The notes: generated by a model from the letters alone, not told the origin. A stretch of 64,000 nt of DNA from Candidatus Latescibacterota bacterium (GCA_965222605.1 OZ244960.1:1504001-1568000); one strand, 5' to 3'; shown: positions 15,805-33,500, counted from the stretch's first letter. Translations and numbers: made by a program.

Positions 15805-16722
15805 CTATGTGATCACACCGCGCTTGCGAAGCATATCATCCACCTTATCATCGCCTGTCGCTTTGTCGGCAAAGTTGAACTCCGATTCCGCATTGAGCAG
15901 CAACTCAATCACCCCGGCGTAATCGGCATCTGGAACGGGATGATTTGCCAGAAAATACATCGTTGAACCAAGTGCCGTACCACCAAAATCATTTTTCAGC
16001 GCAACAGAAGCCCCGTCCCCCAGAAGCATCTCGACCGTATCTCTCCGACCGCGTTGTGATGCCAACACCAACCCCGTATTATTTGCCCCACCCTTTGCGT
16101 CTATATCCACGCCACGTTTGAGAAGACATTCTGCCACCTCGGTATGTCCATACTTGCAAGCGCACCAAAATGCTTCTTCCAACTCTCTGCTGGATATACC
16201 TCCCTTATCGACGAATCTCTCGACCAGTTCAAGCTCTCCCAAACCAGCAGCGATTTCGACATTCATGATCCGTGCACCGCATTCAAGAAGAGCCTGAACC
16301 GACTCGGGATACTCAAAACCAAGCGCGAGCCTCAAAGGTTCACCATCTCCCATTATTCCATCTACTCTGGCACCTGCATTGACGAATACTCTCACAAGCT
16401 CAGCGGCAACCCCTGATTTATGTGGATGAAAACTGGTCACCAACGACACAAGAGGTGTAGTCCCCGACTTCCCATCCAGAAAAGTAGCATCTATTTCGGC
16501 ACCGGCATCAATGAGTATATTTGCGACATCGACAGCATTAGCCGGTGTACTCTGCCGTTCATCTTCCACACCATTTGCCGCCACATAGTGGATCAACATC
16601 GCTCTATGCGCTCTGGATGATCGCATGCGAATCAGATCAGGTTCCTGCTTAAGTAGCGATTTAAGCGTCTCCGTATCGCCGGAAATCACGGCATCAACTG
16701 CTTCCTCAAATTCCTTAGCCAT
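15805..16722 (-). CDS. Ankyrin repeat protein
   Basis: Repeats such as AFWCACKYGHTEVAECLLKRGVDID and GLVLASQRGRRDTVEMLL. Confidence 0.85.
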   Translation of the reverse strand: MAKEFEEAVDAVISGDTETLKSLLKQEPDLIRMRSSRAHRAMLIHYVAANGVEDERQSTPANAVDVANILIDAGAEIDATFLDGKSGTTPLVSLVTSFHPHKSGVAAELVRVFVNAGARVDGIMGDGEPLRLALGFEYPESVQALLECGARIMNVEIAAGLGELELVERFVDKGGISSRELEEAFWCACKYGHTEVAECLLKRGVDIDAKGGANNTGLVLASQRGRRDTVEMLLGDGASVALKNDFGGTALGSTMYFLANHPVPDADYAGVIELLLNAESEFNFADKATGDDKVDDMLRKRGVIT

Positions 16723-18347: not shown

Positions 18348-18411
18348 AAATATATATTTTATTATTTTTCAGCATGTTATCACAAAATGGCTAAATTCCA
18401 CAACGCCACAA

Positions 18412-18450
18412 GTGTCCGGTATTGATACACAGGTGTCCGAAAATGAACAC
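18412..18450. promoter_or_regulatory. Tandem imperfect palindromes, putative enhancer-binding-protein sites
   Basis: gtgtccggtattgatacac and gtgtccgaaaatgaacac, about 65-100 bp upstream of the sigma-54 site. Confidence 0.55.
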
Positions 18451-18491
18451 TTAAAACCAAATTTTTAACCGATTACTCAGACGAAAATTCA

Positions 18492-19397
18492 CTATACCTT
18501 CACCTTCAACGCACCCGGAACAACCTCAATCTTCGCGGGAATCTCACACACGGGTTCGCCATCGGCAAAAATCCACAAAGGATCATCGGACTCAATCCGC
18601 AAAGCCCTGGTCTGCACAACACGCACAGCAGAATGACCAATATGTGCGCCGGAATACGCGCTCAAAAACATCCGCAAAACCGTCCAGCGCGAAACATCTG
18701 CCACAATGCACACATCCAGCATCCCATCATCAACAATGGCATCAGGTGCAATTTTAATCCCACTCCCATAAAAAGGCGCATTCGCCGTTGCCACCAGCAA
18801 AATACGCCCTTCAAAAACGCCAAAATCTCCTCGCAGACACACAAAAGGAGATCGATATCCAAATAGTGTTCGCAAAACTGTCAGCCCGTATGACACCGTT
18901 CCCCCCGCCTCCAAAGCCCGTGTGAGAATGTGCATTGAACCAGTCCCCTGATTCCGCATCCTTTGCGCCACCGCCGTATCGAAACCCAAACTCGCAACAG
19001 TCACAAAAAATCGGTCGCCCACTTTCCCCAGATCAATCGCGCGATCCACCCCATGCACCAGCGTATTGACCACATCCTTCACATCTCTGGGCAACCCCAA
19101 TGCCCGCGCCAAATCATTCCCGCGACCACAGGGCACAATCCCCAAAACCGCATCTGAATTTGCGAGACCATTGACCACTTCATGAACCGTCCCATCCCCC
19201 CCACACGCAGCAACCTGTCGCGCACCCCGCGCCAACACTTCTCGCGCTATCCGCTCGCAATCGCCCGGCGCCTCCGACACCATCAAATCGGAATTTACAC
19301 CGCGCTCGCGCAACAAATCCGCAACCCGCTCACCCACGCGCCTTGCACGACCGCGTCCCGAAACGGGATTTGCAATAATTGTCCAGTGATTTGACAT
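18492..19397 (-). CDS. Diacylglycerol kinase family lipid kinase (YegS/DgkB/BmrU)
   Basis: IANPVSGRG, GGDGTVHEVVNG, PCGRGNDLARALG, ANAPFYGSG, DDGMLD, FADGE. Confidence 0.9.
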   Translation of the reverse strand: MSNHWTIIANPVSGRGRARRVGERVADLLRERGVNSDLMVSEAPGDCERIAREVLARGARQVAACGGDGTVHEVVNGLANSDAVLGIVPCGRGNDLARALGLPRDVKDVVNTLVHGVDRAIDLGKVGDRFFVTVASLGFDTAVAQRMRNQGTGSMHILTRALEAGGTVSYGLTVLRTLFGYRSPFVCLRGDFGVFEGRILLVATANAPFYGSGIKIAPDAIVDDGMLDVCIVADVSRWTVLRMFLSAYSGAHIGHSAVRVVQTRALRIESDDPLWIFADGEPVCEIPAKIEVVPGALKVKV

Positions 19398-19492
19398 AAG
19401 CTCAAAAAGAAAACTCACCTCTCTATGAGATGAGTCAATAAATAATGCATCTAAATGGTTCTCCTCATCGGGAAATTCTTCGCAGAGAGAAC

Positions 19493-20647
19493 CTAAAAAA
19501 GACCATACTCTTGCTTCAATCTTTGAATCCGATTAAAGGATTCGCAAATGCGTTCTTCTTCAACAACGCCATCTGCTACTGCCTGTACAATGGCATTTTT
19601 TACATCGTACACCTGTTCAATATTGTATTCCCCAATCTGGTTGGCGAGCAAGATCATATCAACACCTGCTTTTATAGCTTCAACAGCCGCCTCTGCCAAC
19701 CCATACGCTTCAACAATCGCCCCCATTTGCATATCATCGGAAATAATGACCCCATCAAAACCCATCTCATTCCTGAGGATCTTCGTCATAATATCATGCG
19801 ACAAAGTTGCCGGTCTTCCACTTTTATCGAGCTCCCGATTGACAATATGCGCGGTAATAATCGGATCGTCATAGCCTTTTTGGATAAATTTTTGATACGG
19901 CAAAAGCTCTTTTACACGTTGGTATGTCTCCGTGACATCGGTAACACCGAGATGTGTATCGCCCGCCGCACTTCCGTGTCCGGGAAAGTGTTTCAGAGTC
20001 GGTATCACCTGCCGCGCTCGGTGTGCGTTGACAAACGCATTGGCATGCGCTACCACAGCCCTCGGCACATCGCTAAATGACCGTTCTATCGCGCCAATAG
20101 CCGGACTTTTGGGATCTATATTTACATCGACAACCGGAGCAAAATTCCAGTTAATCCCCATATCTTTCAATTCGCGTGCAAGTGCGCCTGCCACTCTTTT
20201 TGTCCTACCTGAGGACTTCCTGCCGAGTTTTTGAGCAGAAGGCACAGATACAGCAAATCCATACTCCTTTTTTAGTCGATTGACATACCCACCTTCTGCG
20301 TCAACCGCGATAAAATAGGGCACGGTTGCGACAGCCTGAAGCGCTGAGGTCAATGCGCGAAGTTGCCGCGGGGACGTGATATTCCGCACCACCTCACCTT
20401 TGCTCGGCAGATCGTAGTCAAAAAGCACCACCCCACCGGGTTGAATATCCCGCAGTATCGCCGCGATATCCCCATCTAAAACATCACCGCGAAAACCGAT
20501 CATCAGCATCTGCCCCACTGCTTCCTCTAACGCGGGGAAGTCAGGGTGAAGCTTATGAGACCGCGTCATTGGCTCCAAAAAATTCTCTTTGAACGCAAAC
20601 GTCGCGCCTTCGCCCTCCTGAATCGGAATTTCAAAATCAGCGGGCAT
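19493..20647 (-). CDS. GH3 beta-N-acetylhexosaminidase (NagZ-like)
   Basis: AVDAEGG, NFAPVVD, ERSFS, KHFPGHG, DTH, ISDDMQM; start overlaps the SDR stop (TGATG). Confidence 0.85.
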   Translation of the reverse strand: MPADFEIPIQEGEGATFAFKENFLEPMTRSHKLHPDFPALEEAVGQMLMIGFRGDVLDGDIAAILRDIQPGGVVLFDYDLPSKGEVVRNITSPRQLRALTSALQAVATVPYFIAVDAEGGYVNRLKKEYGFAVSVPSAQKLGRKSSGRTKRVAGALARELKDMGINWNFAPVVDVNIDPKSPAIGAIERSFSDVPRAVVAHANAFVNAHRARQVIPTLKHFPGHGSAAGDTHLGVTDVTETYQRVKELLPYQKFIQKGYDDPIITAHIVNRELDKSGRPATLSHDIMTKILRNEMGFDGVIISDDMQMGAIVEAYGLAEAAVEAIKAGVDMILLANQIGEYNIEQVYDVKNAIVQAVADGVVEEERICESFNRIQRLKQEYGLF

Positions 20648-21477
20648 CACACCATATCCTCCAACCCCTGATCCCTCATCTTCCTCTTCACCAGCCACTC
20701 GACAATTTTGGGATGAATCAATTGAAGCCAGGGCAATGCGCGGTGATGCCGGGGAAGCACCAATTCGCGCTTCTGTTTTCGCATCGCTTTCAAAATTGCC
20801 ATGCAACAATATGTAAGAGAAATCGACTCTTTGTTGTGCCGCTGTGAGGAATCGCCCAATGCTTCACCATCTTTCCCAAAGGCGTGCTGTCTCAAATTCG
20901 TCCCCTCAAGCCAATGCGGCAATACCGTCAACACATGCACCTCTTCCACTTCCAGACGCAGAGCGTTTAGAAAACCCAGCACCGCGTGCTTTGACGCCCC
21001 ATATCCCGTATGCAAAGGCACGCCAAATTTCCCCTGCACAGAGGCAATACCTACGATCATACCCTTCGAAACTTTCAAATGTGGCAATGCCGCATGCACA
21101 CAATAAACCAGACCGAGATAATTGGTCTCCATCAGCTTGCGAAACATCCCCAAATCTTCTACCTCGTCAAACCGCGCCCACATACTGATCCCGGCATTGG
21201 CAATCAAATAATCTATGCGGTCAAATGCTGCAATCGTCGCCTCAATCAATTGCTCGCAATCTTCGATCCGTGTAACATCCCCCACCACTGTCACCACCTG
21301 TGCGCCCAACCCCCGACACTGCTCAGCCGTCTCGCCTAACTTTTCCTCTCGCCGAGCAAACAATGCCAGATGTGCGCCCTGTTTCGCCAATTCCAGAGCC
21401 AATGCAGCCCCAAGCCCCGAAGACGCGCCTGTAATAATCGCTACCTTATCGCAAAACATTGCGCCATTCAAAATCAA
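20647..21477 (-). CDS. Short-chain dehydrogenase/reductase, DHRS7/DHRS7B-like (candidate acyl/alkyl-DHAP reductase)
   Basis: TGASSGLG, NAGIS, METNYLG, ASVQGK, YGASKHA; the SDR call is secure, the substrate is inferred. Confidence 0.8.
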   Translation of the reverse strand: MILNGAMFCDKVAIITGASSGLGAALALELAKQGAHLALFARREEKLGETAEQCRGLGAQVVTVVGDVTRIEDCEQLIEATIAAFDRIDYLIANAGISMWARFDEVEDLGMFRKLMETNYLGLVYCVHAALPHLKVSKGMIVGIASVQGKFGVPLHTGYGASKHAVLGFLNALRLEVEEVHVLTVLPHWLEGTNLRQHAFGKDGEALGDSSQRHNKESISLTYCCMAILKAMRKQKRELVLPRHHRALPWLQLIHPKIVEWLVKRKMRDQGLEDMV

Positions 21478-21513
21478 TAATTCCTCTCTATTTAGCTATA
21501 TTGAGGAGGTCTG

Positions 21514-21816
21514 TTAAATGAATCCATCCCGTACAGCCTGGCTTTCAAGTGCTCGTTCGAAACTAACGAGGCGGCGAATGAGACTGTTGTAGCGGGAGTG
21601 CGTATCTCCAGGATATATGGCACCAAGAGCCTTATAGAGCGCGAGTTCCGGCTGGTCTGGCAACGCCACCTGGGGAACCTCCAAACCAGCCGCACGCAGA
21701 CGTGTCGCACCAATGGCGACGAGCAAGGCTTCGACCGTCATCTCACCGCGCTGCAACGCTTCAATGCCCGACATTACGAGATCTGCACCGGGCAAATTTT
21801 GGGGGACTCTATTCAT
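21514..21816 (-). CDS. Hypothetical protein, partner of the DUF6036-like nucleotidyltransferase
   Basis: ATGA overlap with the upstream gene; EALLVAIGATRL...HSRYNSLIRRLVSFERAL. Confidence 0.7.
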   Translation of the reverse strand: MNRVPQNLPGADLVMSGIEALQRGEMTVEALLVAIGATRLRAAGLEVPQVALPDQPELALYKALGAIYPGDTHSRYNSLIRRLVSFERALESQAVRDGFI

Positions 21817-22346
21817 TGCTCCTCCATCGCGTTCACCGCATTCTGCACCTTCTCGCGGAAACACGCAGCATCAATCGCGGGATAACGCACCAAACCAGGC
21901 TCAATCGCGTCAAAGAGCGCGATCAGGCGCATCGGCTCAATCAACTGTTCCCGGTGCATCGCCTCGACATCGCGCAGGTCCTGTTCATGCCCGCGCTCAA
22001 TCTTCGCGAGTGCCTGCGCGTAGAAGTCATAATGAAAAAAATCGACCGCCCCGTATCGAGCGATGAACGCGCTCCGCTCTTGCCAGTTGGGAAGGGGAGG
22101 AATAAAATCATCGGGAGCCGCCAACTCGACATTTATGTTTAAGATATTCTTAGCGCGAGCGATCGCATCAAAAACACCGATGGGTTCCGGATCGAGCTTG
22201 AGATCGACATCTACAGTGGTCGCTCGCCAGCCCAGCAGCACCGCTGAACTCCCTCCAACGAGATAAATTCGGCCTTCGCCTCGTGCCTCTGCACCGAGAC
22301 GCCTCATGAGTTCCTGCACCTTCAGGGCATCGGTCGTTTCTCGCAT
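21813..22346 (-). CDS. DUF6036-like nucleotidyltransferase
   Basis: IYLVGGSSAVLLGWRATTVDVD, QALAKIERGHEQDLRD. Confidence 0.8.
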   Translation of the reverse strand: MRETTDALKVQELMRRLGAEARGEGRIYLVGGSSAVLLGWRATTVDVDLKLDPEPIGVFDAIARAKNILNINVELAAPDDFIPPLPNWQERSAFIARYGAVDFFHYDFYAQALAKIERGHEQDLRDVEAMHREQLIEPMRLIALFDAIEPGLVRYPAIDAACFREKVQNAVNAMEEQ

Positions 22347-22374
22347 GGTATTGGCGTTCCTCTCACTGTCATTT

Positions 22375-24207
22375 TCAATCCCCAAACGCGCCATTGCCAA
22401 TGGCAAAAATATTATTTGGATCCATAGCCTTTTTCATTTGCCGCAGCACTGCAATGCTATTTTCGCTTTGAATCTGAGACAAAAATCCACTGCGGAGCTT
22501 GCCCACGCCGTGATGGTGCGACAAAGACCCGCCGTGGTCTAAAATCTCCTGCCGCAACTGGTGCTCAATCTTGTGATAAACGCCAACCGCATCCTCAAGC
22601 CCCTGTGCGCAAAAACCCATGGTAAAATAAATGCACACACCCGTGTGATAGGTCTGTGTCACGCGATAGGCCAGAAAGGGTTTGCCCGGCACGCTGTATT
22701 CTTCACACAAAGCAATTAGCTTCTTTTCCACCGCACCAATAACATCGTGAATATTAGTCCACGGCACAGAAGTTTCAAATGTCTCGCCCAAAATGTGAAA
22801 CTGAGTAAAAAAATCGCGAATATACGCAATCCCAAACGTCAGCATATACCCCCGCTCGCCACGGCTCGCCCCGCCCGAAATACCGCCGTACTTCTTCACC
22901 AAACGAAAAATCGTCTTTGCCTGCTGCCTGACCTCGTCTTTTGTCCCTTCCATCACAATCGTACAAGCCACCATCTGCTCTGGATCAAAACCCTTGACCT
23001 TAAACAAAAAAAATCGCTGAATACCTTGCTGGAGCTTCTCGAACCCTTTCGCCTCGGGCTTCAGCGCCTGCCCAAGATGAAATTCCGTATTGTTCACCAG
23101 CCGAATACTCGCCGGAATTTGCCCCGTCTGCCGAAGTGCCTTTAAGTAATCTACACCCCGTTCAAATGACGGAAACACCAGCGAGCCAAACGCCTGTGCT
23201 TCGGGCTGTTTGTGAATCTTCATAGTCGCCCGGGTAATAATCCCCAAATTGCCCTCACTACCAAACAAAAACGACCTGGGCTGCACACCTGTCGAATTGC
23301 GCGGCGTCGCATGGTGAGTCTCCACCTCCCCCGTTGGCGTCACCAGCGTGGCCTCTATCACAATATCCTCAATATTGCCATACCGATTCTTTTTCATACC
23401 ACTGGCATTGGTCGCAATCCATCCCCCCAGAGTTGAAAACTCCAAACTATCTGGATCGTGTCCCGACGTGTACCCCCGCTCATTCAGCGCAATCTCCAAT
23501 TGCTTACCCGAAATACCCGCTTGCACACACGCTTGAAAATTCTCTTCATCCACCTGTACAATGCGATTCATGCGACGCATATCCACCGACGCGACCATTC
23601 GCGTCTCTAAAGTCGGAATTGCGAGCGCACCGCTCACATTCGTCCCGCCGCCATAGGGCACCAGCACCACATTGTGATCATTTGCAAGTTGGACAATAGC
23701 CTGAATATCCGCGTCTTCCTCCGGGAACAACACCACATCCACCAGGCGTTCGGGAGGTCGATGGTACGAAATTTGATAAACCTCATCCACACTCAACTGC
23801 CCGTGACTATGCACCAGACGCTCTATGTCCTCCTGAGAAACGCCATCTTCATCGAGTGCCTCGCGCACCGCCCTCAAAAATTCATCATTTGCCACGGGTT
23901 TGGGCAAATCGCGGTGCTCGACCTCCTGCCCCATATCTTCGAGCCTGATCGGCAAATCAAGCACCTTTTCGACAAAAGGCAAAAAATACGGCATCCGATA
24001 GCCACACAACGGATATCGCGTTCCCGTCACCTGCACAGTCCTGTCATCGTCAAACTCAAACCGCGTATCCTTATACCCCCACTTGTGTGCAAACCGCTCG
24101 CCTTCTGTCCCCTCAGAAAAACGGTCTTTACTGGCAAAAGCGCGACGCCCTCGAACGAGCAAAAATACCAGCACCAATAAAAAAGCGACAACCATCAGTT
24201 CATTCAT
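22375..24207 (-). CDS. Alkyl-dihydroxyacetone-phosphate synthase (AGPS-like, FAD-linked) with N-terminal membrane anchor
   Basis: GHDPDSLEFSTLGGWIATNASGMKKNRYGNIED, GSEGNLGI, PASIRLVNN, LTFGIAYIRD, GETFETSVPW, RVTQTY, GGSLSHHHGVGKLR, all recalled as matching metazoan AGPS. Confidence 0.88.
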   Translation of the reverse strand: MNELMVVAFLLVLVFLLVRGRRAFASKDRFSEGTEGERFAHKWGYKDTRFEFDDDRTVQVTGTRYPLCGYRMPYFLPFVEKVLDLPIRLEDMGQEVEHRDLPKPVANDEFLRAVREALDEDGVSQEDIERLVHSHGQLSVDEVYQISYHRPPERLVDVVLFPEEDADIQAIVQLANDHNVVLVPYGGGTNVSGALAIPTLETRMVASVDMRRMNRIVQVDEENFQACVQAGISGKQLEIALNERGYTSGHDPDSLEFSTLGGWIATNASGMKKNRYGNIEDIVIEATLVTPTGEVETHHATPRNSTGVQPRSFLFGSEGNLGIITRATMKIHKQPEAQAFGSLVFPSFERGVDYLKALRQTGQIPASIRLVNNTEFHLGQALKPEAKGFEKLQQGIQRFFLFKVKGFDPEQMVACTIVMEGTKDEVRQQAKTIFRLVKKYGGISGGASRGERGYMLTFGIAYIRDFFTQFHILGETFETSVPWTNIHDVIGAVEKKLIALCEEYSVPGKPFLAYRVTQTYHTGVCIYFTMGFCAQGLEDAVGVYHKIEHQLRQEILDHGGSLSHHHGVGKLRSGFLSQIQSENSIAVLRQMKKAMDPNNIFAIGNGAFGD

Positions 24208-24228
24208 CACATACCTCACAAAATGTTT

Positions 24229-26175
24229 TCAAGACTCTTCCGGATTCAACAACGTCGCAATATGCACCGCTTGAAACAGCGCGGCAGCCTCGGACTGAAT
24301 CCGCAGCGACCGTCTTTTGGGCAACAGGGTCGTCTCCCCCAGCATCGGCGGCGAAACCCACACATCAACTTGCCCCGGATTGATATTGATATTGCCCTTT
24401 GGACACTTGGGCCACAGCGCGTGAAGCCCGCGGTACGCAATCGGCACAATCACCACATCCTGGGGCAATTGTGCAAACACTCCGTGTTGAAGCGGAAATT
24501 GCTGAACTGCAAAAGCCGCCGTCGTCGCCATGGGATAAATAACGCCCGGACGCTCTGTCAATGCCTGTGCCACGCGCTGTGTCGTATGGCCCGCAGCATG
24601 GGATCGCTCGAGCATCACATAGCCATCGACATTTTCCAGAATCTGATCAAATACCTCAGACGTCATCCCAAACTGCGTAATCTGTTTCGACCCAATTTTA
24701 ATACCCGAGCGCGCCAGCCCAGTACGCGCCAGAATCACACAAGGTTCGGGTCTTTCCCATCCCATCGCGTCCAAAAATTCTCGAGACTGCAAAACCTTGT
24801 ACAAAACGGGATGGTCAAACAAACTCTGATGCGTCGGCAAAAAAATAAGACGCCGATCTTCCGCATCGGCTCCCAAATCTCGTACAATGGCTTCAAAATG
24901 GGGATCGATATAAACATCAACGCTAATATCAAAAATATCCAGCGTGCGACGTCCCCAATCGAGCCAGGTGCGCCATCCGGCTTCGCGGCGACGGATGGGA
25001 TCGGCTTCTTTTTCCAACAATTTCTTTTTTTGACGTCCCACCTTGAGCGAAGTCCCCATCCACCGGGCAAAACGCATTCCTCGCTGCAACTTCGAAAATT
25101 GCCCCCGACGTCCGACATTGGGATATTCCAAAAATCGTCCTCGCGCCGTATCTGCGAGCAAAGCGGGAATTTCTATACGCGAAACTTTTTGTCCAACACG
25201 ATCGATTTGCGCGTTCACATCGCATATCAGCTTAACTGACAAATCAATCATATCCCGCGTCAAATAACTATACTCCTGCCCATACCAATACAGCCTGGGA
25301 CGCAACTTGGTGGGATCCTCCTGATGCGCGTGCAAAAATTCAATCAACAACGCCTTGATGTGCAACACATCATCATCTATCCCATCCAGACCCACATCGC
25401 TCACCTCGCGCAACCGCGCCAAAGCCACTTCCGCATCCACAATAACCTTCCACACCGACACACCAAACCAGCCAAAATTTGTCAAATAATTATACCGCGT
25501 TGACAGCAACCCCCCCGCAGCGATCAAATTGAGCGTGCGCTGTGCCACATCTTGCAGCAAATCGCGCAAAGATCCCTCAATCCGCTCGCCATCTCGTTCA
25601 CAACTGTACTCCTCGGCCCAGTGTGCGTCCTCATCCACCGCCACATTGCCAAGAGCCTCTGCAACGGCGCGGGCGTGCGACATCGGCACCTGTGTAATAT
25701 GCACCTGAGCCAGTGCCTCTTCCACGGCTTCGGGCGCGTGTAACTCCGCCTGTGCCAGAGCCTTCAAATACAGAGACTGATACAACTTCAAAAAATCTTT
25801 CGCATCCCCGCGCCCTCGTTCGACAAATTGTCGCCTGAGTTGCAAATAAATTCGGCTGCCCGTGTGATATTGCGGAAGCAACTCCGAAAAAGGCCGATAC
25901 GCCTCGTCCAAACGCTCATTGCGAACCTCGGGCAGGCCCCGAAAAATCGCATCCACAAGCTGCGCGCGAAATTGCAGTGCCTCCATATCCATCGCCCCGC
26001 TCTGACTTTTGGGCCAGATCAGCGCATCTGGATCGAACTCGTCAAAATAGCCATCGTGACGCACGGCTTCGAGCATAAGCTGAACCGATTGGTCATAAAT
26101 AGCCAACATCTGCTCCAGATCGTCGAGCAGTGTTTCGTGCAATGGACGAGTATCTGATTTATCGCGTGTAGTCAT
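24229..26175 (-). CDS. Large PlsC-fold acyltransferase with an ~400-aa unknown N-terminal region (candidate DHAP acyltransferase)
   Basis: IFLPTHQSLFDHP (HxxxxD), IYPMATT (divergent motif III), VVIVPIAYRG; lies between FAR and AGPS. Confidence 0.65.
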   Translation of the reverse strand: MTTRDKSDTRPLHETLLDDLEQMLAIYDQSVQLMLEAVRHDGYFDEFDPDALIWPKSQSGAMDMEALQFRAQLVDAIFRGLPEVRNERLDEAYRPFSELLPQYHTGSRIYLQLRRQFVERGRGDAKDFLKLYQSLYLKALAQAELHAPEAVEEALAQVHITQVPMSHARAVAEALGNVAVDEDAHWAEEYSCERDGERIEGSLRDLLQDVAQRTLNLIAAGGLLSTRYNYLTNFGWFGVSVWKVIVDAEVALARLREVSDVGLDGIDDDVLHIKALLIEFLHAHQEDPTKLRPRLYWYGQEYSYLTRDMIDLSVKLICDVNAQIDRVGQKVSRIEIPALLADTARGRFLEYPNVGRRGQFSKLQRGMRFARWMGTSLKVGRQKKKLLEKEADPIRRREAGWRTWLDWGRRTLDIFDISVDVYIDPHFEAIVRDLGADAEDRRLIFLPTHQSLFDHPVLYKVLQSREFLDAMGWERPEPCVILARTGLARSGIKIGSKQITQFGMTSEVFDQILENVDGYVMLERSHAAGHTTQRVAQALTERPGVIYPMATTAAFAVQQFPLQHGVFAQLPQDVVIVPIAYRGLHALWPKCPKGNININPGQVDVWVSPPMLGETTLLPKRRSLRIQSEAAALFQAVHIATLLNPEES

Positions 26176-26194
26176 GAGAGTTACTCAAAAAAGA

Positions 26195-27799
26195 CTAAAC
26201 ACCTGTCTTTAGCACATGGCGTTGCAAACCGGGAATATGAATATCTTTTACGTAAACGGGCCAATCTATGCGCGAAACATCACAATTAAAAATTTCTTTA
26301 TCTTCTGCATCCATGCTGTCAAATAGCCGATTCATATTGTCATTTTGAAACACGCAATCCAGAGAAATATAAGAGCCGTAAATATCGGTAAGCGACAGCG
26401 TATTTTCCAGCGTCGCATTCAAAATCGATAAATGGCGTTTGCGTTTTGAAACATTGCCCATCGGCACCCAATCCAGTGCCCATTGCAAAATTTTGAGTGG
26501 CAATAGATACTTATAGCGCAACTTTCGACGGAATTGTGACAGCGTCGGATAGGTCCACGGCGTCACTGCAATGGGTTTGCCATTGCGATCGCGCATTGGA
26601 TTGTTCACAAAATACTCATACACATACTGGACGAACTCACCCACCGTCACCGGGTTCTTTGCACTTGTTGTCACATGATAAACCTTCAAATCGGCATTTT
26701 TACGGATGGTAGGCAAAACACCGATAATCACATTGATAATAATATCCACGGGAATAACGTCTAAAACCGCTTCTGGACGCGCTGGAAAATCCGTCAAACG
26801 CCCCTTGCCGTAGTGTACAATAAGTGGGTCGGCCACTTTTAGTCCCTCCAGCCAGCCAGGCTCTGGATCGGACAAACTGCTCTCAATAATAGAAGGACGC
26901 ACGATCACGGTAGGCAAATCACCTCGGATCTTGGCAATCATCTGCTCACCCATGGCTTTGGTAAAAGAATAACTGTCGTGCCAGCCCAACTCTCGCCCGC
27001 GCTTTATGCCGCGCGCGACCATTTGTTCCCGCACCCAGCGCTGGCGCAAAGCCTCCAACTGATGTTCCCGTCGATGCGCTGTAACGCGCTTGCCACGATC
27101 CTGTCGGTCGAGCAACCGCGTAAATTCCGCAAATCGCTCGGGGCTTCGCGACGCCGCCTCTACTTCGCGGCTATACGCCAAAATATCTTCAACCTCCGAA
27201 TCCAGACTATAATCGGGCGCGCGACCATTTCCCATCTGTTGTGCCACCGTTTGATCGGGCACGGGCGCGTTTTCAGAAATGACCCTCTTTTGCCGCCCAT
27301 TGACATAAGCCGTTGAAACATGCACGAGCACAGCATCTCGACACGCTTTGGCAAATTCGACAACGCGCTTGGCCCCAAGTGTATTTTGCGCCAAAGCCAG
27401 ATCCAGTGGTGCGTCAAAAACCACATTGGCCGCGCTGTTAATCACAACATCGACTTCACGGGTCAACCGCGCATATGTCTCGGCATCCATGCCGAGGTGA
27501 TCTTGTGTCAAATCGCTCGGCACGGCAATGACTTTTTCGCGCATCACAGCATCAAAACGATCCCCGAGTTCTGCGCGCAATCGCGCAAAAGCACCAGATT
27601 GCAAAATCTCCTTTTGCAGTCGGTCTTCGGCACTAATGGGCTTGCCCCCTCCCCGCCTTTGAGGTCGCACCATAAGATAAATGCGCCCAACATCTGGCAC
27701 CTGACAAAGGATTTTTCCCACCAATCCCTTGGCCAGAAAACCAGTTGCACCCGTAACAAAAAGAACCTTGTGGTTCAAAAATGGAATAACAACACTCAT
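26195..27799 (-). CDS. Alcohol-forming fatty acyl-CoA reductase (FAR, male-sterility family)
   Basis: VTGATGFLAK, INSAANV, HVSTAYV, YSFTKAMGE, IVRPSIIES, PEPGW, DVIPVD; C-terminal Sterile-like domain (IDWPVY...HIPGL). Confidence 0.9.
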   Translation of the reverse strand: MSVVIPFLNHKVLFVTGATGFLAKGLVGKILCQVPDVGRIYLMVRPQRRGGGKPISAEDRLQKEILQSGAFARLRAELGDRFDAVMREKVIAVPSDLTQDHLGMDAETYARLTREVDVVINSAANVVFDAPLDLALAQNTLGAKRVVEFAKACRDAVLVHVSTAYVNGRQKRVISENAPVPDQTVAQQMGNGRAPDYSLDSEVEDILAYSREVEAASRSPERFAEFTRLLDRQDRGKRVTAHRREHQLEALRQRWVREQMVARGIKRGRELGWHDSYSFTKAMGEQMIAKIRGDLPTVIVRPSIIESSLSDPEPGWLEGLKVADPLIVHYGKGRLTDFPARPEAVLDVIPVDIIINVIIGVLPTIRKNADLKVYHVTTSAKNPVTVGEFVQYVYEYFVNNPMRDRNGKPIAVTPWTYPTLSQFRRKLRYKYLLPLKILQWALDWVPMGNVSKRKRHLSILNATLENTLSLTDIYGSYISLDCVFQNDNMNRLFDSMDAEDKEIFNCDVSRIDWPVYVKDIHIPGLQRHVLKTGV

Positions 27800-27868
27800 A
27801 AAAAGACCCCGGCGTCCAAAAAAATTAAAACGCAACAGCGCGAAAAAGTATCTCCTCAAAGTGCCCTA

Positions 27869-27897
27869 ATTAAAGACGTACATTGGACTTGTGTCAA
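27869..27897 (-). promoter_or_regulatory. Sigma-70 promoter for the FAR-acyltransferase-AGPS operon
   Basis: Minus strand TTGACA-17 bp-TTTAAT. Confidence 0.65.
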
Positions 27898-27945
27898 CCT
27901 CTTTCTCAGGCAGTTCACAAGCGCAAATCCTTATCAAAAATGAGG

Positions 27946-27974
27946 TTGACAAAAAAAAGGCCAACTCCTATCTT
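27946..27974 (+). promoter_or_regulatory. Sigma-70 promoter for the ndk-fab operon
   Basis: TTGACA-17 bp-TATCTT. Confidence 0.65.
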
Positions 27975-28025
27975 GTCCATCTTCAGGCCGGTATAAGCCG
28001 TATTTCTCCACACGGAGTTTTATGC

Positions 28026-28424
28026 ATGGAATGCACCCTGCTCATCGTCAAACCCGACGCTGTTGCACAAAATGTAATCGGTGAAATCATTCGCCGTCTC
28101 GAAGAAAAAAAATTTCGGATTGTAGATCTGAAAATGGTTCGCCTCACGCGCAAACAGGCCGCCGAGTTTTATGCAGTACATCGCCAACGGCCTTTTTACA
28201 ACGACCTGCTCGATTTTATGACCTCTGGCCCCTGTGTGCCCATGGCACTCAAACGAGACAACGCCGTCGCATTTTTGCGCGAAGCCATTGGCAGCACCAA
28301 TCCCGAAGAAGCCGCAGAAGGCACCATTCGCAAAGACTTTTCAACCGATATTCAAAACAATGCCGTACACGCCTCAGATTCACTGGAAAACGCGGCCAAA
28401 GAAGTGGCTTTCTTTTTTGAGTAA
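28026..28424 (+). CDS. ndk: Nucleoside diphosphate kinase
   Basis: TLLIVKPDAV, FYAVH, FMTSGP, GTIR, NAVHASDS. Confidence 0.95.
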   Translation: MECTLLIVKPDAVAQNVIGEIIRRLEEKKFRIVDLKMVRLTRKQAAEFYAVHRQRPFYNDLLDFMTSGPCVPMALKRDNAVAFLREAIGSTNPEEAAEGTIRKDFSTDIQNNAVHASDSLENAAKEVAFFFE

Positions 28425-28440
28425 AGCGGTCAACTACCTT

Positions 28441-28956
28441 ATGAAAATAGACCTGAGAGATATACGGGAAGGCGAAACCGAATTCGCGTTTGAAGAAACG
28501 CCAGCCGACCTGCACATTACCGAAGAAGACACCCAATTTGCAGGTGCCATAAACACCCGTCTCGTCGTGTACAAATTTGGCGACTCGCTCTCGGCCAAAG
28601 GTCAAACCACCTGTCTCGTGCGCCCCGAATGCGCGCGGTGCCTGGAATCCATCGAATTTCCCATGGCAGTCTCATACACATTCGTTTTTCAAAAAGGTCG
28701 TCCCGACCAGATGAACGATGACGATGACGAAACGCTGATCTGGCTCAATGAAGAACCCGGCGAAATAGACCTGGGCAATCACGTAAAAGATTATATTTTG
28801 CTCGAACTACCCATGATTCCAACTTGCGCTGCATTGCCTTCTGGCCCTTGTGAACGCTATGAGCAAGACCCCCACGAATTGCTGGAATACACGCGCGAAA
28901 AGAGCACTGACCCGCGTTGGGATGCTCTCCGCGCACTCAAAGAAAGCGAACAGTAA
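28441..28956 (+). CDS. yceD: YceD/DUF177 family protein
   Basis: CARCLE, ILLELPM, DPRWDAL; precedes rpmF. Confidence 0.9.
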
Positions 28957-28985
28957 ACGGAGCATTAATCAAAAAGGAATACCCT

Positions 28986-29168
28986 ATGGCAAACCCCAAA
29001 CGAAAAAGTTCACGTTCTCGCACAGGTAAACGCCGTGCCAATTGGAAGCTGCGTCAACCCACCTTTAACGAGTGCCCCAACTGCGGGCAACAAAAAATAC
29101 CCCATCGGGTCTGTGGAAATTGCGGTTATTACAATGGGCGCGAAGTGGTTGAAACCGATGGCTTTTAA
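28986..29168 (+). CDS. rpmF: 50S ribosomal protein L32
   Basis: [17 protein letters not shown]...CPNCG...[11 protein letters not shown]. Confidence 0.95.
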
Positions 29169-29213
29169 TTTGGGTCTAATGTCGCGCAGACTTTGAGGAG
29201 CAGAGTAATTATC

Positions 29214-30206
29214 ATGTATCCCCTTACAGCCACCATCAGCGGGATTGGGCACTATGTTCCAGAACAAAAGCTGACCAATACCGACCTCGAAAAAATGGTC
29301 GATACATCCGACGAGTGGATCACATCCCGCACCGGCATCAAAGAACGCCGCATCCTCGACAAAGGATTGGGCACCTCTTTTATGGCCCTAAAATCTCTGG
29401 AATCTATTCTGCACAACAAAGGGCTCAATGCCAGAGATCTCGACCTGATCATCGTTGCGACCATCACGCCCGACATGGTATTTCCGGCAACAGCCTGTCT
29501 GGTACAGGACCAAATTGGCGCCACAAATGCCTGGGCTTTCGATCTATCGGCAGCCTGTAGCGGTTTTCTATATGCCCTGATAGTGGGGGGGCAATTTATT
29601 GAAACGGGCGCACACAAACGCGTAGCCGTCATTGGGGCAGACACAATGAGCAGCATCACAGACTACACCGATCGCGATACCTGTGTGCTCTTTGGCGATG
29701 GCGCGGGCGCAGTTTTACTCGAACCCGGCGAACCCGGTTTGGGGCTTAAAGACTTTATCCTCTATTCTGATGGCAACGGCGTAAAATATCTGCGGCAACC
29801 CGCTGGCGGCAGTCTGCATCCGGCCTCTCGTGAAACCGTTGATAAGAAAATGCACTATATTTATCAAGATGGCCGCGAAGTTTTCAAATTTGCAGTTCCC
29901 AAAATGGCCGAAGTTTCCGCTCAAATTCTGGAACGCAACGGCCTTGTTGGTGAAGACATCGCGCTTTTTGTGCCGCATCAGGCCAACAAGCGCATCATCG
30001 ACGCATGTGTTAAACGCACAGATATACCCAAAGACCGCGTCGTGGTCAATATCGACCGCTATGCCAACACCTCGGCTGCCACCATTCCCATTGGCCTGTC
30101 TGAAGCGGCCGAACAGGGCCGCCTCAATCGCGGTGACAATGTGCTGCTCGCCAGTGCGGGTGCGGGATATACCTGGGGCAGTACTCTGCTAACCTGGGCT
30201 TATTAG
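29214..30206 (+). CDS. fabH: 3-oxoacyl-ACP synthase III
   Basis: DTSDEWI, AACSGF, LFGDGAGA, PHQAN, YANTSAA. Confidence 0.95.
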   Translation: MYPLTATISGIGHYVPEQKLTNTDLEKMVDTSDEWITSRTGIKERRILDKGLGTSFMALKSLESILHNKGLNARDLDLIIVATITPDMVFPATACLVQDQIGATNAWAFDLSAACSGFLYALIVGGQFIETGAHKRVAVIGADTMSSITDYTDRDTCVLFGDGAGAVLLEPGEPGLGLKDFILYSDGNGVKYLRQPAGGSLHPASRETVDKKMHYIYQDGREVFKFAVPKMAEVSAQILERNGLVGEDIALFVPHQANKRIIDACVKRTDIPKDRVVVNIDRYANTSAATIPIGLSEAAEQGRLNRGDNVLLASAGAGYTWGSTLLTWAY

Positions 30207-31124
30207 ATGAATAAAAAAGCGTTTCTATTTCCAGGACAAGGCTCCCAATTTGTTGGCATGGGTCACGACCTGTACAGAAGCGCACCAGAAGCACACAAAA
30301 TTTTTGATCTCGTCGATGATGTGCTCGACATAGACATCAAATCATTCTGCTTCAACGGTCCTGCCGAGTCACTCAAACAAACCGCAGTCACACAACCGGC
30401 AATTTTTGCCCACAGCATTGCCGCCCTTGAAGTAATCAAAAGCCGGGGACTGCACCCCGACCTCGTGGCAGGACACAGCGTCGGAGAACTCGCCGCGCTC
30501 GTTGCGGCAGGTGTTATGCGCGTTGAAGACGGCTTTCGGGTCGTCAGTGTTCGCGGGCATGCCATGCAAGTCGCGGGAAAAATTCGACCAGGCTCCATGG
30601 CCGCAGTACTCGGTCTCAGCGACGACGTGATGATTCAGCTTTGCAAAGACCTCAGTTCTTCGGGTCATGTCACAACAGCCAATTTCAATTGCCCGGGGCA
30701 AGTGGTCCTATCTGGCGAGGAAAGCGCCGTTGAAAAAGCACTCGAAAAAGCCAAAGCACTGGGAGCCAAACGCGCCGTGCTCTTGCCCGTGGGCGGCGCA
30801 TTTCACTCGGCCTTGATGCAACCAGCCATAACAGCACTGACAGATATACTCGACGATGTGCCATTTGCTCGGGCGCAAATCCCCGTGATTCCCAATGTCA
30901 CGGCTGAACCCACATGCGATCCCGTTCTGCTCAAAGACCTGTTGATTGAGCAGGTTATTTCACCCGTTCGCTGGACCGAATCCATGCAACGGCTCATAGC
31001 AGAAGGCATAACCGAGGCCCTCGAAGTGGGGCCAGGCAATGTGCTCAAGGGCCTCATGCGCCGAATTGACCGAAATATTTCAGTCCGCGAAGCTGGCACA
31101 TTGGAAGCTATTGAACAACTTTAG
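30207..31124 (+). CDS. fabD: Malonyl-CoA:ACP transacylase
   Basis: FPGQGSQ, TQPAI, GHSVGE, GAFHS, EVGPG. Confidence 0.95.
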   Translation: MNKKAFLFPGQGSQFVGMGHDLYRSAPEAHKIFDLVDDVLDIDIKSFCFNGPAESLKQTAVTQPAIFAHSIAALEVIKSRGLHPDLVAGHSVGELAALVAAGVMRVEDGFRVVSVRGHAMQVAGKIRPGSMAAVLGLSDDVMIQLCKDLSSSGHVTTANFNCPGQVVLSGEESAVEKALEKAKALGAKRAVLLPVGGAFHSALMQPAITALTDILDDVPFARAQIPVIPNVTAEPTCDPVLLKDLLIEQVISPVRWTESMQRLIAEGITEALEVGPGNVLKGLMRRIDRNISVREAGTLEAIEQL

Positions 31125-31146
31125 AGCCTTTAACTGACAATTACTC

Positions 31147-31893
31147 ATGAACCGACTCACAGGTAAAACAGCTCTCGTAACAGGCGGATCTCGCGGCATT
31201 GGCGAGGCCATTGCCCTGCGCCTTGCGCGCGAAGGGGCCAACGTCGCAGTATGTGCCAGCCAAAGCACAGAAGCCGCAGAAGCCGTGGCCGAAAAAATCC
31301 GCGCACAAGGCCGAGAGGCCATAGCACAACAAACCGATGTATCCAATGCCGAATCGGTTGAAGCCCTTGTCAAGACCGCCCTCGGCACCTGGGGCAAAAT
31401 TGATATACTCGTCAACAATGCGGGTATCGCCCGCGACAATTTGTTGATGCGTATGAAAGAAGACGAGTGGGATGCTGTCCTTGACGTCAATCTCAAAGGT
31501 GCGTACCATTGTATCAAAGCTGTTACCCGTCCCATGATGAAAGCGCGAACCGGTCGTATCATCAACGTCTCATCGGTCGTGGGTCTCATGGGCAATGCCG
31601 GGCAGATCAATTACGCCGCGTCCAAATCGGGCCTTATTGGCTTGACCAAATCGGTAGCCAGAGAATTAGCCAGCCGCAATATTACGGCCAACGCCATTGC
31701 GCCCGGATTTATTCCAACGGACATGACCGCCAAACTCAACCCTAAAATACAAGAACAATTAATCGCTCAGATTCCACTGGGCAAACTCGGCAGCCCCGAA
31801 GATGTCGCCGCTGCCGCAGCCTTTCTCGCTTCTGACGACGCAGCCTATATTACCGGACAGGTTCTCGTTGTCGATGGCGGAATGGTGATGTAA
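31147..31893 (+). CDS. fabG: 3-oxoacyl-ACP reductase
   Basis: TGGSRGIG, NNAGIARD, NYAASK, PGFI. Confidence 0.95.
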   Translation: MNRLTGKTALVTGGSRGIGEAIALRLAREGANVAVCASQSTEAAEAVAEKIRAQGREAIAQQTDVSNAESVEALVKTALGTWGKIDILVNNAGIARDNLLMRMKEDEWDAVLDVNLKGAYHCIKAVTRPMMKARTGRIINVSSVVGLMGNAGQINYAASKSGLIGLTKSVARELASRNITANAIAPGFIPTDMTAKLNPKIQEQLIAQIPLGKLGSPEDVAAAAAFLASDDAAYITGQVLVVDGGMVM

Positions 31894-31924: not shown

Positions 31925-32164
31925 ATGACCGATGACATTCAACAAAAAGTTACCGACCTGATCGTTGACCAACTCGGCGTCGATGCCGACAGCGTCAATG
32001 CCGACGCCCATTTTATTGACGATCTGGGTGCAGACTCGCTCGACACAGTCGAACTGGTCATGGCTTTTGAAGAAGAATTTGACATGGAAATCTCCGACGA
32101 AGACGCCGAGAAGCTCGAAACAGTTGGCGATGCCATCGCATACATAGACGAACGTCTGGATTAA
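31925..32164 (+). CDS. acpP: Acyl carrier protein
   Basis: [20 protein letters not shown]. Confidence 0.97.
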
Positions 32165-32249
32165 CTCGGAAACTGGAGGCTGGAGATAGACCCTCGATCC
32201 ATTACCAATGGGTGTAGGAACAACTCTCAAGTCTCCAGGAGGTCATTTA

Positions 32250-33500
32250 GTGAACAGACAACGCAGGGTGGTCATCACCGGCATGGGCGCACTTGCCCCC
32301 AATGGCAATACCACAAAAAGCTATTGGGAAGCATTGTGCAACGGACAAACAGGTGTTGGCCCCATAACAAAATTTGACGCCACCGATTTCCGCGTGCAAT
32401 TTGCCGCCGAAGTCAAAAACTTTGATCCAGAGCACTTTGGCATTGACCGTCGAAGCCAGCGGCGCATAGATCTTTTCGCGCAATACGCCATTGCATCGTC
32501 TGTTCAGGCCGTCGAACATGCAGGTCTCGACATCAGTGCCAAACAAGCCGAACGCATCGGGGTTGTATTTGGCTCGGGCATTGGAGGTATCAAAACCTTT
32601 GAAGACCAGCACGATGCCTACCGCAAAGGTGGTCCACGGCGCATCAGCCCGCTTTTTGTGCCCATGATGATCCCCGATATGTCCTCGGGTCAAGTATCCA
32701 TCCATCTCGGTGCCAAAGGCCCCAATTATACCATCGTCACAGCCTGCGCCTCGGCAGCCCATGCCATTGGCAATGCAGCCCGCGAAATTTGGGACGACGA
32801 AGCCGATGTCATGATCACAGGGGGAGCCGAAGCCGCCATTACCCCAATGTCAGTCGGTGGATTTGCCTCGGCGCGAACGCTTTCAACGCGCAACGACGCC
32901 CCAACGCAAGCCAGCCGCCCTTTTGATGCAGACCGAGATGGATTTGTAATTGGCGAAGGTGCCGGCGGGCTTATTCTGGAAGAACTCGAACACGCAACAC
33001 GACGGGGGGCGACTATTTATGCCGAAGTGGTCGGTACGGGATATACCGGCGATGCCTACCACATTACCGATATGGCACCTAACGGCGAGGGAGGTGCCCG
33101 CGCCCTGTGCCGTGCCATGCGACAGGCGCAGATCAATCCAGAAGACGTATCTTATATCAACGCACACGGCACATCAACACCTGTGGGCGATCTGGGAGAA
33201 ACAGCCGCCATCAAATCCGTATTTGGCGACTATGCCAAAAAACTCGCTGTCAGTTCCACAAAATCCATGACCGGACATCTTCTGGGCGCTTCGGGTGCGA
33301 TTGAAACCATCGCAGCAACCCTATCAGTTTACCACAATGTAATACCGCCTACGATCAACTATGAAACACCCGATCCAGAATGCGACCTCGATTACGTGCC
33401 CAACGAAGCCCGGGAAATACCCGTTGAAATAGCCATCAGCAACTCCTTTGGCTTTGGCGGTCACAACGCAGTCCTCATCCTGCGTAAGTTTCGCAACTAA
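32250..33500 (+). CDS. fabF: 3-oxoacyl-ACP synthase II
   Basis: RRVVITGMG, TACAS, NAHGTST, GHLLGA, SNSFGFGGHN; GTG start after aggagg. Confidence 0.95.
   Translation: MNRQRRVVITGMGALAPNGNTTKSYWEALCNGQTGVGPITKFDATDFRVQFAAEVKNFDPEHFGIDRRSQRRIDLFAQYAIASSVQAVEHAGLDISAKQAERIGVVFGSGIGGIKTFEDQHDAYRKGGPRRISPLFVPMMIPDMSSGQVSIHLGAKGPNYTIVTACASAAHAIGNAAREIWDDEADVMITGGAEAAITPMSVGGFASARTLSTRNDAPTQASRPFDADRDGFVIGEGAGGLILEELEHATRRGATIYAEVVGTGYTGDAYHITDMAPNGEGGARALCRAMRQAQINPEDVSYINAHGTSTPVGDLGETAAIKSVFGDYAKKLAVSSTKSMTGHLLGASGAIETIAATLSVYHNVIPPTINYETPDPECDLDYVPNEAREIPVEIAISNSFGFGGHNAVLILRKFRN

Follow-up and report, generated by a model that had tools for sequence, protein, structure and literature searches.

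A minus-strand gene cluster in the genome of a Candidatus Latescibacterota bacterium probably represents a bacterial acyl-dihydroxyacetone phosphate (DHAP)/alkyl-DHAP pathway for 1-O-alkyl glycerolipids. The cluster is located in a stretch of 64,000 nucleotides (GCA_965222605.1 OZ244960.1:1504001-1568000; G000:C1:1504001-1568000 in our numbering), hereafter termed the window, which is part of a single-contig genome of 6.34 Mb with a completeness of 98.7%. Eight open reading frames (ORFs), all on the minus strand, extend from position 27799 down to 18492 and include genes for a fatty acyl-CoA reductase (FAR), an acyltransferase (AT), an alkyl-DHAP synthase (AGPS), a short-chain dehydrogenase/reductase (SDR) and a lipid kinase. 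The initial annotation of the sequence had placed these ORFs at the same positions and strand, and had proposed a eukaryote-type ether-lipid operon with all steps to 1-O-alkyl-glycerol-3-phosphate. The family identities and the linkage of the genes have stood, but the acyltransferase is not a detectable homologue of GNPAT and the GH3 gene of the same run probably lies outside the pathway.

In the proposed scheme, the FAR would convert a fatty acyl thioester into a fatty alcohol and the AT would acylate DHAP at sn-1, yielding acyl-DHAP. The AGPS would then form the ether bond by replacing the acyl group with the fatty alcohol. Reduction of the 2-keto group by the SDR would lead to 1-O-alkyl-sn-glycerol-3-phosphate, and the same enzyme probably turns acyl-DHAP into 1-acyl-glycerol-3-phosphate as well. 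A single PlsC and CdsA would channel the product onward to phospholipids, and the YegS-type kinase probably re-phosphorylates dephosphorylated lipid, e.g. alkyl- or diacylglycerol. All substrates and products of this scheme are inferences on our part, most notably the use of DHAP as acceptor by the AT. A further-reaching interpretation, which is slightly short of an even chance, is that the clade formed by the families f1 to f4 and f8 (132 genomes out of the 168 sampled from the phylum) has dropped the GpsA-PlsX/PlsY route and builds every glycerolipid via acyl-DHAP; the new AT family would then acylate DHAP, and ether lipids would be housekeeping products.

Enzyme families of the cluster

Family identities were established for the FAR, the AGPS, the SDR and the kinase, as were the fold and motif of the AT, the gene order and the phyletic patterns. 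The FAR gene (26195-27799, minus strand; 534 amino acids) encodes an N-terminal Rossmann domain of the NAD_binding_4 family (PF07993, E-value 8.7e-65, profile positions 1-258 of 258), whose motif TGATGFLAK fits the pattern TGxTGFLxK, and a C-terminal Sterile domain (PF03015, 6e-15). This is the architecture of FAR1-like enzymes, and the match to the solved FAR 7eoz (6.2e-91) is in agreement with the fatty acyl-CoA reductase predicted initially. The longest ORF spans 26195-27859, with the likely start at the ATG at 27799, from which the protein reads MSVV...TGATGFLAK.

The AGPS (22375-24219, minus strand; 614 amino acids), an alkyl-DHAP synthase by homology, consists of a FAD_binding_4 and a FAD-oxidase_C domain. 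Its best solved relative is the guinea-pig AGPS (4bby; 6.1e-151, 507 bits, residues 46-606 on 95-653), and the alignment of 561 positions includes the N-terminal extension. The AGPS of Dictyostelium (2uuu) is matched with 2.5e-89. Grouping with GlcD or D-lactate dehydrogenases had been named at the outset as the result that would speak against an AGPS, and the opposite was found (6.1e-151 versus 2.2e-25 for a D-lactate dehydrogenase); D-lactate dehydrogenase and glycolate oxidase match at 1e-25 or weaker. The five AGPS-like peptide strings picked out in the initial annotation are all present in the query lines of the alignments with solved AGPS. Counted from the alignment, the protein is identical to the guinea-pig enzyme at R419, T568, Y578 and H615-617 (in pasiRl, rvTqty, ciYf and slsHHHgvgk); R419, T568, Y578 and the H615-H617 loop are what we take to be the catalytic residues of guinea-pig AGPS. 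Judged by its sequence, the FAD enzyme is thus a genuine AGPS homologue and not of the GlcD type. Such homologues are numerous in metagenomes, with at least 5046 clusters at E ≤1e-30 among 8000 scored, and the named clusters include Latescibacterota and Poribacteria.

The classical SDR (20647-21477, minus strand) is the proposed acyl/alkyl-DHAP reductase. It belongs to adh_short (2.2e-47) and scores 293.9 bits against NF004825 (cut-off 215 bits). Its nearest solved relatives are generic, namely clavulanate dehydrogenase (9e-30) and 11-beta-HSD1 (4e-24), and a protein-atlas look-up returned generic SDR clusters only, which added no function; the DHRS7B-like identity named initially is putative. 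The gene is located directly 3' of AGPS wherever a two-gene insertion described below is absent, and this conserved adjacency supports the proposed reductase function. The YegS/BmrU-family lipid kinase (18492-19418, minus strand) exhibits DAGK_cat and YegS_C domains and exceeds the cut-off of TIGR00147 (177.7 versus 118.65 bits). The domain families thereby confirm the SDR, the GH3 and the DAG-kinase-family protein that had been recognized initially.

The AT (24229-26175, minus strand; 648 amino acids) has no family match below 1e-3. PF01553 reaches 13.1 bits only (cut-off 23 bits, E 0.087), and the searches yielded neither an NCBIfam match nor a solved relative by sequence. A HMMER search of 1.84 billion representative proteins with a profile of the AT family retrieved no GNPAT, FARAT, PlsB or PlsC; the 64 proteins recovered, about seven of them full length and the rest fragments, represent only the small family of the AT itself. 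A word-indexed search with the AT provided 171 clusters, of which 120 were listed; precomputed Pfam domains are missing from all of these 120, and wherever a name is given it reads "hypothetical protein", with a single exception. In the protein atlas, the AT matched only the Latescibacterota cluster to which it belongs and some short acyltransferases of generic type, which added no function. Longer, FARAT-like fused forms were not found by a search that is weak evidence on this point.

The catalytic fold is nevertheless that of a glycerolipid acyltransferase. The motif PTHQSLFDH, with H449 invariant and D454 present in at least 90% of 28 homologues, corroborates the HxxxxD acyltransferase of the initial annotation. 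In an AlphaFold model based on these 28 homologues (pLDDT 83, pTM 0.87), residues 361-644 superimpose on the PlsC of T. maritima with Z 16.5 (rmsd 3.1, 220 aligned), on human GPAT1 with Z 12.4 and on squash GPAT with Z 11.9; Foldseek retrieves PlsC at 1.5e-4. The first ~410 residues form long helices with unspecific helical-bundle matches only (Z ≤10). According to the model, the AT represents a separate, unnamed family with a helical N-terminus and a GPAT/PlsC-like C-terminal domain. The fold and the HX4D motif place it among these enzymes, but sequence homology to GNPAT or PF01553 was not found, and its presumed status as GNPAT counterpart by homology had to be abandoned (13.1 versus 23 bits; none among 1.84 billion proteins). 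It is probably a GNPAT analogue in position and role without being a demonstrable homologue.

Conservation of the cluster and loss of the canonical route

We examined 51 loci that encode a relative of the AT. The FAR gene is located directly upstream of AT in 31 of them, and AT stands alone in 20. AGPS is the next gene in 25 of the 31 FAR-AT loci, and SDR follows AGPS in 22 of these 25; two of the three remaining AGPS loci end at a contig edge. The order FAR-AT-AGPS-SDR is retained down to ~50% AT identity (L022, L023, L027, L028, L029, L031), and the kinase directly follows SDR in three of the six distant loci (L023, L028, L031). AGPS and SDR adjoin even where AT is unlinked, e.g. in G128 and G098, and this adjacency was found in all four loci examined from the other order (G128, G098, G167, G106) and by coordinates in others. 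In G128 (f4), AGPS occupies 986175-987971 and SDR 987988-988776, and AT is located at 5.19 Mb. The unlinked AT genes of L034, L043 and L048 have no conserved neighbour in common.

The distribution was determined in 168 genomes of the phylum; totals include the window genome and family counts exclude it. AT (E ≤1e-30) is present in 132 genomes (f1 30/30, f2 22/22, f3 3/3, f4 74/76, f8 1/1, f14 1/5), FAR (E ≤1e-60) in 131 (f1 30/30, f2 22/22, f3 3/3, f4 72/76, f8 1/1, f13 1/1, f14 1/5), AGPS (E ≤1e-100) in 124 (f1 28/30, f2 22/22, f3 1/3, f4 71/76, f8 0/1, one elsewhere) and the SDR orthologue (E ≤1e-60) in 119 (f1 28/30, f2 22/22, f3 0/3, f4 68/76, f8 0/1, none elsewhere). The co-conservation of the four genes that the initial annotation had expected is therefore evident from both the 51 loci and the 168 genomes. 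Its assumption of a non-myxobacterial lineage is equally well founded, as the closest genomes are metagenome-assembled genomes (MAGs) labelled Latescibacterota or Latescibacteria, with AT identities of up to 96%. Carriers that are less closely related bear the labels Gemmatimonadetes, Handelsmanbacteria, Eisenbacteria or Planctomycetota. Submitters' labels are unreliable, since at least two of these, L040 (= G151) and L043 (= G113), fall by coordinates within the window's own GTDB phylum despite other labels. The identity of AGPS declines stepwise from 96% to ~60% with decreasing kinship.

Several genomes deviate from the common pattern. Proteins of ~1400 amino acids with an ElbD-like composition (FAR with NAD_binding_4 and Sterile, AMP-binding, sometimes PP-binding, and PF01553; e.g. 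L061:1097-5317, minus strand, and L063:3507-7856, plus strand) occur in most genomes of f4, which belongs to a different order of the same class as the window, and in G031 (f13). The latter is 96% complete and showed no match to PlsY, PlsX, GpsA, AT or AGPS; with its ElbD-like fusion of 1449 amino acids it may represent another lineage with a non-canonical start of lipid synthesis. The genomes G008 and G037 share an AGPS-less cluster of FAR, AT, a HAD hydrolase, a Zn-dependent dehydrogenase and a LarA-like protein, followed by the kinase (L059 6060-17000; L060 2531-12717). This variant is conserved in two families, the kinase is near FAR-AT in both genomes, and an acyl-CoA synthetase gene is located upstream in G037.

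The textbook view, to our knowledge, is that bacterial phosphatidate synthesis always starts from GpsA-made glycerol-3-phosphate (G3P), which is acylated by PlsB or PlsX/PlsY. The window genome contains no match to PlsY (PF02660), PlsX (PF02504) or GpsA (PF07479), for which 8, 9 and 10 of 14 control genomes, respectively, were positive. A tblastn search of the window genome with the PlsY, GpsA and PlsX ORFs of G010, a member of the same phylum, likewise provided no match at E ≤1e-3, and neighbouring G010 genes were matched. Throughout the clade, PlsY and GpsA are both absent (f1 0/30, f2 0/22, f3 0/3, f4 0/76, f8 0/1, for each of the two), and PlsX above the cut-off is found in a single genome (f1 0/30, f2 0/22, f3 0/3, f4 1/76 [G145], f8 0/1). 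The other families contain PlsY (f5 3/3, f6 3/3, f7 1/1, f9 2/2, f10 10/13, f11 1/1, f12 4/6, f14 5/5), GpsA (f5 3/3, f6 3/3, f7 1/1, f9 2/2, f10 11/13, f11 1/1, f12 3/6, f14 5/5) and PlsX (f5 2/3, f6 3/3, f7 1/1, f9 2/2, f10 13/13, f11 1/1, f12 6/6, f14 5/5; 34 genomes above the cut-off in all).

AT and PlsY are thus complementary: PlsY was detected in one of 132 AT-bearing genomes (G034) versus 28 of the 36 without AT. As the genomes are kin, the 132 observations are not independent, and the pattern probably goes back to one or two events in evolution. The clade of 132 sampled genomes lacks GpsA, PlsX and PlsY with two isolated exceptions, G034 and G145. The former (f14) is the only genome that combines FAR-AT-AGPS (C112:9-5438) with PlsY, GpsA and PlsX. 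As the contig that carries this cluster is short and the MAG is 89% complete, either a transfer or an error of binning may explain the combination. Seven genomes underlying the loci L025, L028, L030, L031, L032, L040 and L043 were also considered, five of which were searched per family; PlsY was absent from four of five, with one weak match (6e-16), and GpsA from all five.

Of the enzymes leading to phosphatidate and onward, the closed genome of the window retains only PlsC, CdsA and GlpK. Its single PF01553 protein, a family searched in this genome only, is a PlsC of 222 amino acids encoded after cmk, and CdsA is present. Since no PF01553 protein other than this PlsC was found, the AT, a single-copy gene, is the only GPAT-fold candidate found for acyl-DHAP formation. 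An archaeal-type glycerol-1-phosphate dehydrogenase was considered and rejected: the profile PF13685 is too generic (five matches in the window genome, 13 of 14 controls positive), its five proteins are lactaldehyde-reductase-like Fe-ADHs and AroB, and NF002022 scores 56 bits against a cut-off of 413 bits. No vinyl-ether desaturase of the PEDS1/CarF type (PF10520) was found in the window genome or in 53 genomes of the order (0/53), in a search to which the control genomes did not respond either.

The genomic context of the cluster points in the same direction as the missing genes. Divergent from FAR, the plus strand carries ndk, yceD, rpmF, fabH, fabD and fabG (27891-31893). The start of fabH follows 24 nt after rpmF, and plsX is absent from its usual slot; in G010 it adjoins the fabH orthologue. 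The window accordingly exhibits a classical fab operon minus plsX, abutted by the FAR-AT-AGPS-SDR cluster, and this divergent arrangement is retained in 26 of the 31 FAR-AT loci, down to ~50% AT identity. Downstream of fabG, two plus-strand ORFs of 79 amino acids (31925-32164) and 430 amino acids (32208-33500) look like acpP and fabF by size and position. The tentative proposal that acyl-DHAP is the only de novo route draws its support from the joint loss of GpsA, PlsX and PlsY, the single-copy AT, the presence of just one other glycerolipid acyltransferase and the location beside the fab operon.

Competing explanations

Several observations weigh against the acyl-DHAP interpretation. The AT shows no detectable sequence kinship to GNPAT or to the AT domain of FARAT, and its specificity for DHAP is for that reason deduced from context, i.e. 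from the FAR, AGPS and SDR neighbours and the absence of GpsA. In f4 the AT gene is unlinked to AGPS-SDR, and most genomes of this family possess the ElbD-like FAR/AMP-binding/acyltransferase fusion instead of a free FAR. FAR and AT are adjacent in G008 and G037, which lack GpsA, PlsY, AGPS and the SDR orthologue, and this indicates that the AT is independent of AGPS; the reductase, if needed there, is a different protein. The AT-bearing genomes G008, G037, G039, G150 and G153 contain GlcD-like matches only (26-32% identity) in place of AGPS. A bona fide GlpK in the window genome (TIGR01311, 664.6 versus 590.35 bits) implies that G3P could still come from glycerol, which, together with the AT-bearing genomes without AGPS and SDR orthologue, weakens above all the proposal of a sole de novo route. 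Finally, most of the interval 18400-28000 is matched with 92-99% identity by contigs of four RNA libraries (three studies; one library is labelled sponge metagenome and another coral metagenome), and a single contig of 6.8 kb spans 19511-26117, from GH3 to AT; such contigs cannot prove transcription, strand, starts or levels, and uncovered bins are uninformative.

These findings could be reconciled with a general G3P acyltransferase that replaces PlsB/PlsY, uses G3P obtained via GlpK or from the environment or host, and leaves the ether branch as an accessory, with the acyl-DHAP for AGPS being a side product of the AT or stemming from another enzyme. The AT indeed tracks the absence of PlsY and not the presence of AGPS, as seen in G008, G037, G039 and the genus g28, which harbor AT without AGPS/SDR, and its fold matches G3P and lysophosphatidic acid acyltransferases. 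Acceptance of DHAP in addition to G3P is a property of established GPATs, among them E. coli PlsB and yeast Gat1/Gat2. This explanation, to which we assign roughly the weight of an outside chance, has to cope with the absence of GpsA from all 131 other genomes of f1 to f4 (0 of 30, 22, 3 and 76), from the f8 genome and from the window genome, and the clade is consequently left without a known source of de novo G3P. Uptake from a host is difficult to generalize, because the clade comprises lake, groundwater and marine MAGs according to the record titles and not symbionts only. Moreover, a reductase gene is located near AT in both cluster variants (SDR in the window, the Zn-dependent alcohol dehydrogenase in G008 and G037), as would be expected for a keto intermediate.

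Two further scenarios are much less probable. The conservation of the FAR-AT pair without AGPS in G008 and G037 and the large unexplained helical domain of the AT might suggest a neutral-lipid module, in which the AT esterifies the fatty alcohol to a wax ester or storage lipid and AGPS-SDR is a separate unit. We regard this as quite improbable: the fold and the HX4D motif are of the glycerolipid-acyltransferase type, from which the wax synthase/DGAT type differs, and the clade would be left without any candidate sn-1 acyltransferase despite its PlsC and CdsA. Neither the complementarity with PlsY, PlsX and GpsA nor the place beside the fab operon would be explained. The remaining scenario, in which the genes were recently acquired by horizontal transfer from a eukaryotic host (a sponge, for instance) or represent host contamination, would account for the high similarity to animal AGPS, the eukaryote-type Sterile domain of the FAR, an ankyrin-repeat gene nearby and the relatives in sponge-labelled runs. 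It was rejected on distribution and synteny, and we consider its probability minimal. The genes are embedded between bacterial genes in a single 6.34-Mb contig, AGPS is present in 124 of the 168 genomes with an identity that falls in steps (96% to ~60%), the fab-operon synteny persists to ~50% AT identity, and the profile search identified no eukaryotic relatives of the AT. The acyl-DHAP/alkyl-DHAP pathway thus remains the probable interpretation of the cluster.

Accompanying features and comparison with known systems

The genes of the cluster are tightly packed, with gaps of 19 nt between FAR and AT and of 9 nt between AT and AGPS. AGPS and SDR are separated in the window by a DUF6036 nucleotidyltransferase gene (21813-22406, minus strand; PF19502, 4.4e-07) and an ORF of 116 amino acids without a family match (21514-21864, minus strand). 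Among the 16 close loci that contain AGPS and SDR, eight carry the two genes together, one has just the small ORF and seven have neither of them; all six distant loci are devoid of the insertion. This variable presence in close relatives and absence from all distant ones, which agrees with the inserted gene pair of the initial annotation, makes the two genes look like a small mobile insertion, possibly a toxin-antitoxin-like module. The GH3/NagZ-like glycosidase gene (19493-20809, minus strand; PF00933, 3.8e-67) scores 193.7 bits against NF003740, under the cut-off of 207 bits. Its longest ORF overlaps SDR, and the true start is probably located later. It was found in 13 of the 16 close but in none of the six distant loci, and this confinement to close kin probably places it outside the pathway. 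The DUF6036 pair and the GH3 gene are accordingly passengers.

The near-consensus sigma-70 promoter proposed upstream of FAR is partly substantiated. The hexamers TTGACA (27897-27892) and TTTAAT (27874-27869) are present on the minus strand with a spacer of 17 nt and 11 of 12 matches to the consensus, ~70 nt upstream of the FAR start and within a divergent region of ~230 bp common to FAR and ndk, but the consensus scan did not list the site, because it requires the second base of the -10 hexamer to be an A. As promoter-like sites in the region are also just mildly above shuffled sequences (18 versus 11.3, sd 3.3), a functional FAR promoter at 27869-27897, for which transcription would start near 27862, is no more than plausible from its sequence. 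A terminator-like hairpin of ten pairs with a T-rich tail (19412-19436, minus strand) follows the stop codon of GH3 and precedes the start of the kinase gene; such sites show no excess in the region (15 versus 14.0 in shuffles). The Rfam scan of the window provided no RNA family match. Two genes beyond the lipid kinase, a protein of 305 amino acids with ankyrin repeats (Ank_2, 5e-17; 15805-16722, minus strand) is encoded, which has an orthologue in most close loci. Ankyrin-repeat proteins are common in sponge symbionts.

Parts of the stretch were found in 20 public runs from nine studies. The RNA-library contigs mentioned above show that close relatives of the cluster occur in the respective samples, a sponge and a coral metagenome among them, and the link to sponges that the initial annotation had suggested is to that extent supported. 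If ether lipids are housekeeping membrane lipids of these bacteria, the clade would be a strong candidate source of sponge monoalkyl glycerol ethers, and, more generally, a concrete bacterial origin could be named for the 1-O-alkyl glycerol lipids that abound in sponges and sediments. The acyl-DHAP pathway could then be the main route in a bacterium, and the AT would introduce a new family of enzymes for the initial acylation, as a third independent solution at sn-1 beside PlsB and PlsY.

The idea of the pathway is largely right but not new in kind. An AGPS/FAR-AT operon is known from M. xanthus, and a 2026 preprint reports matches to agps and "standalone elbD" in sponge MAGs of Latescibacterota, Poribacteria and Acidobacteriota, the term GNPAT occurring 0 times in its text without supplements (10.64898/2026.06.23.733905). 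The AT family, the joining of the tight FAR-AT and AGPS-SDR pairs beside a plsX-less fab operon and the clade-wide loss were not found in print: searches of open papers and preprints, without their supplements, revealed neither an account of the AT family nor one of a FAR-AT-AGPS-SDR cluster or a loss of GpsA, PlsX and PlsY in Latescibacterota. Some of the genes may be listed in Supplementary Table 2 of the preprint and in Datasets S2-S10 of PMC13012113, which has a collapsed bacterial clade of 361 sequences.

In comparison with the canonical GpsA-PlsX/PlsY or PlsB route, the proposed role of AT and SDR is the same, i.e. the delivery of a 1-substituted glycerol-3-phosphate to PlsC. The acceptor would be DHAP, however, with the reduction taking place after the acylation, and the AT is neither homologous to PlsY nor recognizable as PlsB. 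The animal peroxisomal pathway (FAR1, GNPAT, AGPS and DHRS7B/PexRAP) comprises, judging from the gene families, the same four proposed steps encoded by separate genes; the likeness extends to the AGPS, with 507 bits over 561 positions to the guinea-pig enzyme, and to the two-domain build of the FAR. Differences are the AT, an analogue and not a demonstrable homologue of GNPAT, and the clustering of the genes beside the fab operon in a cell without organelles. The fusions of ~1400 amino acids in f4 and G031 resemble ElbD of the Myxococcus elbA-E system in domain content, whereas the window genome has no such fusion (the best match of the G128 fusion is the free FAR) and encodes a separate FAR and AT plus AGPS.

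The closest bacterial counterpart is the operon of M. xanthus with the AGPS MXAN_1676 (~42% identical to human AGPS), the fused FAR-GNPAT-like protein MXAN_1675 and MXAN_1674 of the NAD epimerase family (PMC9131029, PMC13012113), which according to a review gives only a minor share of the ether lipids. As far as these accounts describe it, it combines, like the window, a bacterial AGPS with FAR activity, an acyltransferase and a gene of NAD(P) reductase type, and mirrors the first peroxisomal steps. In the window, two distinct ORFs with 19 nt between them encode FAR and AT in place of a FARAT fusion, and the AT belongs to another, unnamed family without detectable relation to GNPAT. The gene order is FAR-AT-AGPS-SDR with a classical SDR as reductase and a lipid kinase attached, and the clade lacks the canonical GpsA/PlsX/PlsY route. 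The eukaryotic FARAT has been argued to derive from Myxococcota, in a paper whose text, without supplements, mentions Latescibacterota and Poribacteria 0 times (PMC13012113). If the proposed pathway holds, the cluster bears on this proposal that eukaryotes took FAR/GNPAT from myxobacteria, as it adds a second phylum, with a split FAR/AT and an animal-like AGPS.

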